Translations under genes and position numbers: made by a program
Notes under the pieces: model-generated
Database searches by the model: none
Told to the model about the DNA's origin: nothing
What the model saw: the letters and a program-made list of their open reading frames with translations, nothing else
IMG/VR virus record: IMGVR_UViG_3300043570_001741
Location: 1 to 64,000 of that record
Strand: one strand, 5' to 3'
DNA length: 64,000 nucleotides
Origin: a virus
Shown here: piece after piece, positions 36,836 through 38,778 of the stretch
How the letters are laid out: the number at the start of each line of letters is the position of its first letter
Numbering within the stretch: position 1 is the first letter of the stretch

Positions 36836-37122
36836 TTTTAGATTTATTCAAACCTACAGTAGAATGGATTAAAAATGACTGGTACAGTAATCGTTTTCGT
36901 TTTGGCGTTGAGCTTATTGCTTGGGGTATCAGTATTGGGTGTTCTATTACCATGGCTCTCACAGTCCCGAATCCTCCCCTACTATATCTTTACCCTATTT
37001 GGATTGTCGGCTGTGGTCTCTACGCTTGGGCTGCTTGGACTCGCAAATCTTTTGGCATGTTGGCTAACTACATGCTTTTGGTAACAATTGATTCTGTTGG
37101 ATTGATTAGGATGCTAACATGA
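36832..37122 (+). CDS. Small membrane protein inserted between gp44 and gp62
   Basis: Three hydrophobic segments; ATGA overlaps on both sides. Confidence 0.7.
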   Translation: MILDLFKPTVEWIKNDWYSNRFRFGVELIAWGISIGCSITMALTVPNPPLLYLYPIWIVGCGLYAWAAWTRKSFGMLANYMLLVTIDSVGLIRMLT

Positions 37123-37502
37123 GTCCATTTGATTATGTCAATTCAATCCTACAAAACAAGAAACAGTTAATTGTAGATGAGGCTACAGAAAAGGAATATG
37201 CACCTTTTCTAGTCAATCGCAGTCTTTCCTATCATAAAGACTGTATCATGTATGCAAATGAGATGAACCGGAGGCACTTCCTCGATAAAAAACTACAGAA
37301 TGATTTCCTTCTAAATACGGTAAGGTCACAGAAAAGACCATTTGCTAAGTGGGCTAAAGTTGAAAAAAGTGAAGATTTAGAATGTATAAAGCAAGTCTAT
37401 AATTTCTCCAATTCTAAAGCTCGTGACGCCTTGCGTCTCCTTAGCAAAGAACAAATCCAAGAATTAAAAGAAAAAACCGACACCGGTGGATTAAGGAAAT
37501 GA
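37119..37502 (+). CDS. gp62: Clamp loader small subunit
   Basis: PFDYVNSI, PFLVNRSLS, ANEMN, KRPFAKW motifs. Confidence 0.93.
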   Translation: MSPFDYVNSILQNKKQLIVDEATEKEYAPFLVNRSLSYHKDCIMYANEMNRRHFLDKKLQNDFLLNTVRSQKRPFAKWAKVEKSEDLECIKQVYNFSNSKARDALRLLSKEQIQELKEKTDTGGLRK

Positions 37503-37503
37503 T

Positions 37504-37908
37504 ATGGTTGATTTATCAAAGTTCGTTGAGGTTATTCTTAACGAACAGGATGATTTTTTAAAGGTTCGTGAAACCCTAACAAGAATTGGTGTATCCTCTC
37601 GCAAAGAGAAAGTGTTATACCAATCTTGCCATATTCTGCATAAGCAGGGTAAGTATTATATTGTACACTTTAAAGAATTGTTTGCATTAGACGGAAAACC
37701 ATCTAATATTTCTGAGAATGATATTCAAAGACGTAATGCTATTGCCAATTTATTAGAAGAATGGGGTCTGATTAAAATCTTGAATAAAGAAATTATGACT
37801 GACAACATTGCACCATTACATCAAATTAAAATTATAGCTTTCAAAGAGAAAGACCAATGGGAACTTATTGCTAAGTATAACATTGGTAAGAAAACTCAGG
37901 ATTATTGA
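37504..37908 (+). CDS. regA: Translational repressor
   Basis: DFLKVRETLTRIG, LYQSCHILHKQGKYYIVHFKELF motifs. Confidence 0.96.
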   Translation: MVDLSKFVEVILNEQDDFLKVRETLTRIGVSSRKEKVLYQSCHILHKQGKYYIVHFKELFALDGKPSNISENDIQRRNAIANLLEEWGLIKILNKEIMTDNIAPLHQIKIIAFKEKDQWELIAKYNIGKKTQDY

Positions 37909-37922
37909 TATGGTGATACATT

Positions 37923-38105
37923 ATGAAAACAGAACCAAAAAAAGTACAATTGAAAAACCTCTACACGGGTGATATTGTGTGGACGGATAATTATAATGAT
38001 GTTAACAAAATAAATGAAGTTGAGTTTATACTTGTCTATAAAGAGAGTAACCCACAACGAAAGTATTTTGTTAACCGCTTGGCATTCGAAACGCTAACTA
38101 AATAA
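37923..38105 (+). CDS. Hypothetical protein
   Basis: 60-aa ORF with a GGTGA SD-like site. Confidence 0.55.
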   Translation: MKTEPKKVQLKNLYTGDIVWTDNYNDVNKINEVEFILVYKESNPQRKYFVNRLAFETLTK

Positions 38106-38110
38106 TTAAA

Positions 38111-38283
38111 CCCACTCGGGATGGGACAAGGTGGGAGGTAACCTTGTTAAACACCTTCAACGAACCCACCTTAGGGCCGTTTGATGCTACGGTAACAAGG
38201 CGTCCGTGCAATTGAACTGCCACACGTTAGTTGGTCCAGTATAAAGTAAGCTGGATGATATGCCTTCGGGGTATCAATTTTAT
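38111..38283 (+). ncRNA. Structured RNA with tandem predicted pseudoknots (hsp20 leader or independent ncRNA)
   Basis: GC-richer intergenic region with several hairpins whose loops pair with downstream sequence; ACTAAATA late-promoter-like site just upstream. Confidence 0.6.
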
Positions 38284-38286
38284 CAA

Positions 38287-38301
38287 CTCGCTTAATAGGA
38301 G
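38287..38301 (+). promoter_or_regulatory. ROSE-like SD-sequestering hairpin (RNA thermometer)
   Basis: CTCGCT-TAAT-AGGAG: the U(U/C)GCU motif pairs with the SD of an sHSP gene. Confidence 0.6.
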
Positions 38302-38307
38302 AAAACT

Positions 38308-38778
38308 ATGACTCGCTTTACAACATTGTATCCTCAGTTTGTTGGATTTGACCAATTGTTTAATGAGCTCGAAAGACTCGTTGAAGGTCAAGCACCGACA
38401 CGCAACACTTCTTTTCCACCACATAACGTAATCAAAGTAGATGACAGTCATTATGTCGTTGAACTGGCCGTTGCTGGTTTTGCCAAGGATGAAATCGACA
38501 TTGAGTTGGACGATGGACTTCTTGTTGTCAAAGGTGAAAAGAAAGATAAGGACACCGAAGTAACATATATCCATCGTGGTATTGGTACTCGTTCGTTCAC
38601 AAAATCTTTAACAATTGCTGATACAGTTGAAGTCCGTGGTGCAGAATTCAAGGATGGAATTTTGCGAATTGGTTTGGAGAATGTAATTCCTGAACACAAG
38701 AAACCACGTAAAATTGAAATCGGTAATGGATTAAAGTTACCTAAACCACAACTGCTTCAAGAAAAAGAAACAGTTTAA
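38308..38778 (+). CDS. hsp20: Small heat shock protein (IbpA-like)
   Basis: GFDQLF, FPPHN, LAVAGF, YIHRGI, DGIL.I.L motifs. Confidence 0.93.
   Translation: MTRFTTLYPQFVGFDQLFNELERLVEGQAPTRNTSFPPHNVIKVDDSHYVVELAVAGFAKDEIDIELDDGLLVVKGEKKDKDTEVTYIHRGIGTRSFTKSLTIADTVEVRGAEFKDGILRIGLENVIPEHKKPRKIEIGNGLKLPKPQLLQEKETV

Follow-up and report, generated by a model that had tools for sequence, protein, structure and literature searches.

Covarying pseudoknot modules and a ROSE-like element upstream of hsp20 in an uncultured T4-like lake phage

What is encoded in the long gap that precedes hsp20, a small heat-shock protein gene, in an uncultured T4-like lake phage? The window analyzed here is a stretch of 64,000 nucleotides (nt) from IMG/VR virus record IMGVR_UViG_3300043570_001741, a record of 157.7 kb in total that is estimated to be 95% complete, and the question concerns positions 38111-38307 of this window. 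A preliminary description, whose sequence and coordinates for the region were correct, had proposed a single noncoding RNA (ncRNA) with up to four tandem pseudoknots. Comparison with related phages bears out a real conserved folded RNA and changes the account of its parts: two of the pseudoknots (PK3 and PK4) were drawn wrongly, a ROSE-like thermometer had been overlooked, and in place of one ncRNA we find a chain of separable modules (A, B-C, and the ROSE-like element) that occur in differing combinations. On these sequence comparisons we regard it as established that the modules fold, that the folds are conserved and modular, and that they are linked to the ROSE-like element. We further propose that 38111-38307 is the 5′ leader of the hsp20 mRNA, made of three separable modules of which A and B-C would have a structural role, a reading that we consider evenly poised between right and wrong.

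The comparison drew on approximately 120 hsp20 leaders from related phages and on 79 distinct copies of B-C, the central module, and all counts below are among the matches listed; pattern scans of IMG/VR added many of the long leaders. The relatives, which comprise IMG/VR contigs and cultured-phage records, are labeled L001 and so on. The parts recognized in the window are as follows:

38079-38106, + strand: predicted promoter region, a sigma70-like TTGGCA-16-AATAAT overlapping a T4-late-like CTAAATAA (38098-38105)
38111-38158, + strand: module A, consisting of hairpin H0 and the H-type pseudoknot PK1
38111-38125, + strand: H0, the 5′-terminal hairpin, CCCA (38111-14) paired with UGGG (38122-25), loop CUCGGGA
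38126-38158, + strand: PK1, stem S1 ACAAGGU (38126-32) with ACCUUGU (38141-47), stem S2 GGAGGU (38134-39) with ACCUUC (38153-58), linker UAAAC (38148-52)
38165-38254, + strand: module B-C, two linked (interlocked) pseudoknots between two hairpins
38165-38176, + strand: P1 hairpin, CCC (38165-67) with GGG (38174-76), near-invariant loop ACCUUA
38177-38204, + strand: P2 and candidate PK2, stem CCGU (38177-80) with ACGG (38189-92), loop GAUGCU (38183-88) with GGCGUC (38199-204)
38205-38235, + strand: revised PK3, hairpin GCCAC (38219-23) with G (38230) and UGGU (38232-35), U38231 bulged, loop ACG (38224-26) with CGU (38205-07)
38236-38254, + strand: P4 hairpin (module C), CCAGU (38236-40) with GCUGG (38250-54), conserved loop AUAAAGUAA
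38257-38275, + strand: ROSE-like hairpin 1, GAUAU-G-CC and GG-GUAUC around a UUCG loop, aligning with the first hairpin of ROSE_3
38287-38301, + strand: ROSE-like sensor hairpin, CUC-G-CU (38287-92) with the Shine-Dalgarno (SD) sequence AGGAG (38297-301), UAAU loop, G38290 bulged

Known families account for one end of this region. No Rfam family reached its cut-off in the whole window, and ARAGORN found no tRNA or tmRNA gene there. A permissive Rfam scan of 37800-38600 gave a single meaningful match, an end-to-end alignment with ROSE_3 (RF02523) at 38254-38313 (25.3 bits, E 0.0065), while the 5′ part apart from ROSE_3 matched no Rfam family at E ≤ 10 in the window or at E ≤ 1 in 20 relatives. 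The Rfam check suggested at the outset therefore has two answers: the 3′ 60 nt belong to a known family or a near relative of one, and the 5′ ~145 nt (38111-38254) match no family, so that for this part the RNA is indeed undescribed.

The ROSE_3 match recurs among the relatives. Of 20 related loci, 13 have it at the corresponding position, with scores of 25-36 bits and, in L078, of 47.2 bits (above the cut-off of 43). The cultured Methylophilales phage Melnitz-3 has a ROSE_3 match of 34.1 bits, and the Pelagibacter phages Mosig and HTVC008M have the same layout by eye (TATAAATA, a hairpin, UUUGCU...AAGGAGG, and AUG). Across 30 aligned relatives, hairpin 1 was 100% paired with 4 of its 7 pairs covarying, and the sensor hairpin was 98.7% paired. 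Hairpin 1 is present in nearly all related hsp20 leaders and is followed in most by a run of 4-7 U; in the window, a U-rich linker (38276-86) lies directly 3′ of it. The pattern YU(U/C)GCU...AGGA occurred within 50 nt of the start codon in 105 of the 119 distinct hsp20 leaders collected, and most of the remaining leaders belong to second genes of operons in which the first gene has the element. Judged by architecture and homology, 38254-38313 is a short ROSE-like RNA thermometer of the ROSE_3 type; this links the phage group as a whole to the ROSE_3 family, with the window copy alone below threshold. The UUCG hairpin reported earlier (38257-75) is thus real and is hairpin 1 of this element. 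The pairing that was thought to enclose it in a fourth pseudoknot (AUAAAGU with AUUUUAU) is not upheld, being made of A and U only, 83-86% paired, and devoid of compensatory changes.

Positions 38254-38307 immediately precede hsp20 and lie in the 5′ untranslated region (UTR) of this small heat-shock gene. There, CUCGCU with its bulged G would keep the SD sequence AGGAG in a weak hairpin, and translation of the chaperone should in consequence rise with temperature; this gating of Hsp20 translation is what we infer from the family. ViennaRNA places the isolated sensor hairpin at -4.4 kcal/mol at 20 °C and -2.5 kcal/mol at 37 °C. An earlier suggestion of a translational control element evidently applies to the ROSE-like part, and the pseudoknots are not the evident element. 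Two observations concern the element and its gene. Codons 2-3 of hsp20 (ACU CGC U, 38312-38317) duplicate the anti-SD motif CUCGCU, so that the SD could pair with the upstream or the downstream copy; the downstream copy is unconserved among the relatives, whose genes begin ACA CGC, ACA CUU, or otherwise. Furthermore, in L152, L095, and L125 the ROSE element lies ahead of an open reading frame (ORF) for a helical product of 70-100 amino acids (aa) (e.g., MLTFINNGIDAVETAKKTFVKTF...), with hsp20 second and preceded by a plain SD; here the thermometer would gate a two-gene operon.

Upstream of the thermometer, the pseudoknot of module A is supported on both of its stems. In a MAFFT alignment of 22 distinct copies, S1 of PK1 was 97.7% paired; both partners had changed in 4 of its 6 pairs and in 6 of the 8 pairs of S2. 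None of 500 shuffles reached the observed covariation, and slid controls were all far lower. A per-sequence search found the PK1 topology in every module A copy, with stems changing in step: ACUACC/GGUAGU, ACUAGC/GCUAGU, ACCAGC/GCUGGU, and ACAAGGU/ACCUUGU for S1, and UGCCGCUG/CAGCGGUG, UACCUGUG/CACAGGUG, UACAUGUG/CACAUGUG, GUGAGGGG/CCCCUCGC, and GGAGGU/ACCUUC for S2. By these compensatory changes PK1 is confirmed as an H-type pseudoknot, with both stems as first drawn. The hairpin in front of it, H0, is less constrained. Its 5′ arm varies only between C and U opposite G, so that the pairing is consistent with the alignment, not proven by double changes. The first of two CCC..GGG hairpins in the preliminary description survives as this hairpin in a different register: CCCA (38111-14) is better paired with UGGG (38122-25) than with the first G run, a register that would leave too small a loop in certain relatives. 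The sequences GGGAUGGGA of H0 and GGGATGGG are invariant in module A copies, and other loops of the module vary in length and sequence between subclasses (GGGAGGUA in the window vs AUGCCGCUGAAG elsewhere).

A covariance model of module A (R1) scored 35.3 bits on the window (E 2.5e-7), where it found the sole copy in the 157.7-kb genome. It identified 25 copies among 100 pattern-fetched contigs, and in all 25 a ROSE element comes next, with hsp20 after it either directly or beyond a small ORF.

For module B-C, the pairs of a named structure were counted on alignments of three sizes (30, 35, and 79 distinct sequences), the largest of them made by a covariance model (R2) that lacks the pseudoknot pairs. 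P1, the second of the CCC..GGG hairpins, holds as described: it is 95.7-98.1% paired, and its outer pair alternates between CG and UA in 6 sequences (one covarying pair). The P2 stem is conserved at 96.5-99.3% paired. Its loop pairing, PK2, is 90.9-95.7% paired, with four pairs varying solely between C and U opposite an invariant G, which is what the pairing predicts, and with its second pair failing in 26 of 78 sequences. The only real double change is found in one lineage, L095, where PK2 reads GAUGUU/AAUAUC; four of the six pairs are altered there, one of them on both sides, and all six are still paired. With nearly all of its changes one-sided, PK2 is only plausible as a pseudoknot on a stem that is itself sound.

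The alignments show PK3 to be a true pseudoknot that has to be drawn differently. In the revised hairpin (38219-35), all 6 pairs show double changes, with up to 5 pair types per position and 98.1% paired overall, and RNAalifold predicts this helix unaided, including pair 38223-38230 (CG 25, UA 9, GC 1). The CGU/ACG stem formed with its loop is 100% paired, with two pairs invariant and the third present as UA in 50 and AU in 27 sequences. Of the earlier drawing, the stem CGUG/CACG thus remains as 3 solid base pairs (bp), one of them covarying, and the proposed partner CAAUUGA/UUAGUUG does not, with 80% paired and zero compensatory changes. P4 is likewise what is left of PK4: the stem CCAG/CUGG (38236-39/38251-54) is 100% paired and covaries, each of the 5 P4 pairs shows changes on both sides among the 79 distinct sequences, and the tertiary loop pairing drops out. 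In place of up to four pseudoknots, comparison therefore supports at least two and probably three, and not the four as drawn.

The junctions P1/P2, PK2/P3, and PK3/P4 have no linker nucleotides, and the helices of B-C can therefore stack into one continuous rod; this coaxial arrangement is an inference from the sequence. We also considered by inspection a kissing interaction between the P1 loop ACCUUA and the P4 loop. The complement UAAGGU gives a perfect 6 bp in one subtype, but the other subtype, to which the window belongs, has an uncompensated G-to-A change opposite an ACCUUA that never varies, and we rejected the interaction.

For the module folds, every one of the 500 shuffles and every slid control fell short of the observed covariation. 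Only when the region is read on the + strand are G-U pairs tolerated, and the fold is therefore that of RNA from the gene strand. By contrast, the nested minimum free energy (MFE) of the stretch is not unusual relative to shuffled sequences (z = -0.49), so that the case rests on covariation and not on energy. The MFE structure itself contains an 8-bp helix between AAGGUGGG (38128-35) and CCCACCUU (38165-72), which we discarded as it is absent from the relatives.

Where would such a transcript begin? The window promoter scored 10/12 in a consensus scan. A late-promoter-like CTAAATAA had been noted upstream of the RNA; it is present, corresponds to TATAAATA in the relatives, and overlaps the sigma70-like promoter. 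In the relatives, this place is taken by TATAAATA, by a perfect TTGACA-17-TATAAT, or by both. The leading module, whichever it is, begins 6-8 nt after TATAAATA and/or the sigma70 -10 box; in L154, for instance, a 12/12 TTGACA-17-TATAAT ends 7 nt ahead of module A. This spacing means that the transcript probably starts at the foot of a helix, and in the window the predicted start is ~38110-38114, at the foot of H0. Placement of a module at the transcript start is the arrangement expected of a 5′ stabilizer.

The modules come and go among the relatives. Most of them have 50-85 nt between the upstream gene and hsp20, occupied by a late promoter, hairpin 1, and the sensor hairpin (ROSE only), and lack modules A and B-C; in subsets, the intergenic region is 150-205 nt long. 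We found the combinations A+ROSE, B-C+ROSE, A+B-C+ROSE (as in the window), and B-C alone. This genome has one copy each of modules A and B-C, and conserved copies in IMG/VR number more than 100. Flanking sequence sufficed to judge 74 distinct B-C copies: ROSE comes next in 64 of them, a ROSE-like variant in 2, and something else in 8. These eight, which have neither ROSE nor hsp20 (L399/L408, L404, L405/L448, L417, L427, L433, L470, and L475), lead into a U-rich tail, after which come a new promoter-like site and an unrelated gene. One of them, L433, is closely related to this phage and has kept B-C after regA, with hairpin 1, ROSE, and hsp20 gone. A regA-like gene lies within 900 nt upstream of 63 of the 74 copies, and 9 abut its stop codon. 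The occurrence of B-C without ROSE or hsp20 in eight copies makes it an independent unit whose favored site is the regA-hsp20 gap.

Several further variants were seen among the long leaders. L033, L122, L239, and L299 carry a second form of the middle module, B′, that R2 missed; it has the loop motifs ACCUUAGG and GGUAAG in common with B and seemingly a pseudoknot of its own, between UCGG of the last loop and CCGR upstream. L104, L144, L186, and L286 have an extra insert of ~70 nt between A and B (GUCUACUGCAAUUGCGCUCCCUA...GCGAAGGGUUUG), which may be a fourth module. In L035 (1240-1320) and L427 (2430-2505), a tiny ORF, MWTKPEAVEMRYGFEITMYVMNR or MVWTTPTATDMRFGFEVTMYVMNR, lies just upstream of module B, between regA and B. 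It may resemble the PqqA precursor peptide.

The local gene order is gp62, regA, a 60-aa ORF, the 202-nt gap, and hsp20:

37119-37502: gp62, clamp-loader small subunit gene (PF16790)
37504-37908, + strand: regA, translational repressor gene (Pfam PF01818, 152.6 bits)
37923-38105: 60-aa ORF, no Pfam match
38308-38778, + strand: hsp20, IbpA-like small heat-shock protein gene (Pfam PF00011, 69.5 bits)

The 60-aa ORF is kept in several relatives (motif NLYTGE..., NP.RKY.VN..AF), being present in L033, L062, and L034 and not in L001-L008. Among 50,697 GenBank phage records, none showed DNA-level similarity to the window. The Hsp20 protein is 63-82% identical to proteins of hundreds of IMG/VR contigs, at most 46% identical to proteins of cultured phages, and 47% identical to Salmonella IbpA. 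The best cultured-phage match, L489 (MG065691.1, “UNVERIFIED: Campylobacter phage A11a,” 73709-74904), is an enterobacterial-type ibpA with a ROSE_2 element of 100.4 bits. Its ROSE_2 is nearly equal to that of our Salmonella control, and it looks like bacterial DNA inside an unverified phage record. We also considered whether gene and leader had been captured together from a host ibpA. Even the 80 bacterial Hsp20 genes nearest to that of the phage, mostly alphaproteobacterial, do not exceed 50% identity; no ROSE match was found in the 20 tested against Rfam at E ≤ 0.1, and R1, run on all 80, found module A in none. There is therefore no sign of recent gene-plus-leader capture from a sampled host, and we set this origin aside.

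What modules A and B-C do for the leader is a matter of weighing. Module A presents a hairpin from the predicted transcript start and then an H-type pseudoknot, and modules A and B-C are optional, portable additions to the leader. They may shield the mRNA end from 5′-end-dependent decay or exonucleases, and they may let the thermometer fold independently of upstream RNA. A structural role of this kind (end protection, a ribonuclease barrier, or thermometer insulation) is our best guess, and the nuclease-resistant leader suggested in the preliminary description is a live candidate within it. We favor it because the modules are optional, lie at the transcript start in many phages, and can stack into a rigid rod, and because module A keeps its topology while its loops change.

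A number of observations weigh against this proposal. For the thermometer, the window score of 25.3 bits is under the Rfam gathering cut-off of 43, SD accessibility does not rise with temperature in a nearest-neighbor partition function, and other pairings compete with the SD hairpin when coding sequence is included in the model. ROSE hairpins depend on noncanonical pairs that nearest-neighbor models miss. For the structural role, approximately 20 distinct B-C copies without module A have B only 1-7 nt past a stop codon, which in 9 of them is that of regA; this leaves no room for a promoter after the stop, and B would therefore be internal or 3′-terminal there, not 5′-terminal. Moreover, the invariant loops GGGAUGGGA, ACCUUAGG, GGCGUCCG, AAUU, and AUAARGUAA are not explained by end protection, for which a simple 5′ hairpin would be enough without such elaborate knots.

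A bolder possibility, which we entertain tentatively, is that B-C, and perhaps A, serves aquatic T4-like phages as a portable, autonomous RNA device, a linker-less stack of pseudoknots that would block ribonucleases at either transcript end or dock RegA or Hsp20. If this is true, B-C would be a new class of phage element for RNA stability or regulation rather than an accessory to the thermometer.

The invariant loops that a structural role leaves unexplained make a protein operator a serious rival, albeit a doubtful one. Here, the phage Hsp20 would bind its own leader through A or B-C and repress translation until titrated by aggregates, or RegA would bind. There is precedent in Escherichia coli IbpA, which represses its own translation via the 5′ UTR and needs Arg93, an aromatic residue at 34, and cationic residues at 97/98 to do so, with K98A abolishing repression (PMC10474464). 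The phage Hsp20 keeps Arg at 93, Phe at 34, and Lys at 97, and has Ser at position 98, the position at which the E. coli substitution is fatal to repression. Invariant single-stranded loops in both modules suggest sequence-specific recognition, and the regA neighborhood of 63 of 74 B-C copies would suit RegA. However, most related phages with the same Hsp20 residues lack modules A and B-C, and B-C occurs where hsp20 is absent (L433, L399, L404, L405, and L470).

Still more doubtful is a trans-acting small ncRNA, comprising B-C with or without A, that would be made from the 38079-38106 promoter or cut from the regA transcript and would end at P4 or at hairpin 1 with its U run, the hsp20 neighborhood being a mere favored insertion spot. 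The 8 of 74 B-C copies without ROSE or hsp20, often followed by a U-rich tail and a fresh sigma70-like promoter of an unrelated gene, speak for this, as do L433, with B-C outliving hairpin 1, ROSE, and hsp20, and the 4-7 U after hairpin 1 in most relatives. Against it, 64 of the 74 copies lead directly into ROSE, and module A was never found apart from ROSE (25/25 matches). A consensus terminator scan called neither hairpin 1 nor P4 in the window, L010, or L154, although the scan disallows the bulge and the 9-11-nt loop of these hairpins.

We consider it unlikely, bordering on negligible, that module A or B-C is the aptamer of a ligand-sensing riboswitch that gives hsp20 control a second input. 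A 5′ UTR location would fit, as would the compact pseudoknots, in which nucleotides of junctions and loops are conserved much as in small aptamers. Yet no Rfam riboswitch matched, the downstream genes vary, and we found no alternative partner for the SD or for a terminator, the AAGGUGGG/CCCACCUU helix being absent from relatives; in module A, no fixed pocket is conserved since its loops differ between subclasses. Finally, chance complementarity in a spacer, or coding on one strand, has next to no claim: the unremarkable nested MFE and a minus-strand GTG ORF of 41 aa (38098-38223) are its only support, the covariation counts already refute chance (five helices with compensatory changes beyond every shuffle and slid control, in a region with over 100 conserved copies), and frame-breaking indels of 1-2 nt between relatives exclude coding.

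Our preferred reading, a modular hsp20 leader with structural modules ahead of a thermometer, bears on two fields. ROSE thermometers are regarded as devices of alpha- and gamma-proteobacterial heat-shock genes, and to our knowledge very few RNA thermometers are known in phages. In the papers searched on phage, hsp20, and RNA thermometers, no phage hsp20 was described as carrying a ROSE-like element, and one that is common among aquatic T4-like phages appears to be unreported. Such an element is the rule for hsp20 in a large group of aquatic T4-like phages, including cultured Pelagibacter and Methylophilales phages, which suggests that phages gate this chaperone by temperature. The pseudoknot modules, backed by covariation and absent from Rfam, constitute two candidate RNA families and would allow the modular evolution of leader RNA in phages to be tested. 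If they are nuclease blocks or protein operators, they may provide useful parts for mRNA control in bacteria.

How does this leader compare with known systems? Three phage thermometers have been counted, namely lambda cIII, SPbeta blyA, and a fourU-type element before a gut phage sigma70 gene (PMC11182007, 2024). The present element would share with them phage-encoded, temperature-responsive control of translation; none of the three is of ROSE type, and none is on a small heat-shock protein gene. Pseudomonas ibpA has short two-hairpin ROSE-like thermometers, represented by Rfam ROSE_3 (RF02523) (Krajewski et al. 2013, PMC3669281). Like these, the phage element lies in the 5′ UTR of an IbpA-type gene and has two hairpins, the first with a stable stem of GAUGCC...GGGUC type and the second pairing U(U/C)GCU with the SD AGGA around a bulged G, and the model aligns end to end. 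Unlike these, it is carried by a lytic T4-like phage, its promoter is phage-late or sigma70 and not sigma32, its sensor hairpin is shorter (5 bp and a bulge), a U run follows hairpin 1, and its score is under the cut-off. The phage leader also differs from ROSE elements in adding ~145 nt of pseudoknotted RNA upstream, and we know of no ROSE element with such an addition.

The E. coli and Salmonella ibpA leader (ROSE_2) is likewise a thermometer-bearing mRNA leader of a small heat-shock gene, whose product shares Arg93, an aromatic residue at 34, and a cationic residue at 97 with the phage protein; the E. coli leader also binds its own product (PMC10474464), and the phage Hsp20 is without Lys98. 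The ROSE_2 model matched the Salmonella control at 95.2 bits and did not match the phage leaders. In the T4 gene 32 mRNA leader, cooperative binding of gp32 along unstructured A/U-rich RNA is nucleated by an H-type pseudoknot. Both leaders belong to T4-type phages and have such a pseudoknot at their extreme 5′ end, ahead of the ribosome-binding site. The two share no sequence similarity, Rfam gives no match, and in the present leader the downstream RNA is structured and the gene encodes a chaperone. The pseudoknot stalks of plant-virus 3′ UTRs (the upstream pseudoknot domain of tobacco mosaic virus, TMV) and the exonuclease-resistant viral RNAs belong to eukaryotic RNA viruses and to the 3′ end. 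Although these have no sequence or demonstrated fold relationship to the phage modules, whose role is a proposal, they have in common with them consecutive abutting pseudoknots, the possibility of coaxial stacking, and a proposed role in RNA stability.

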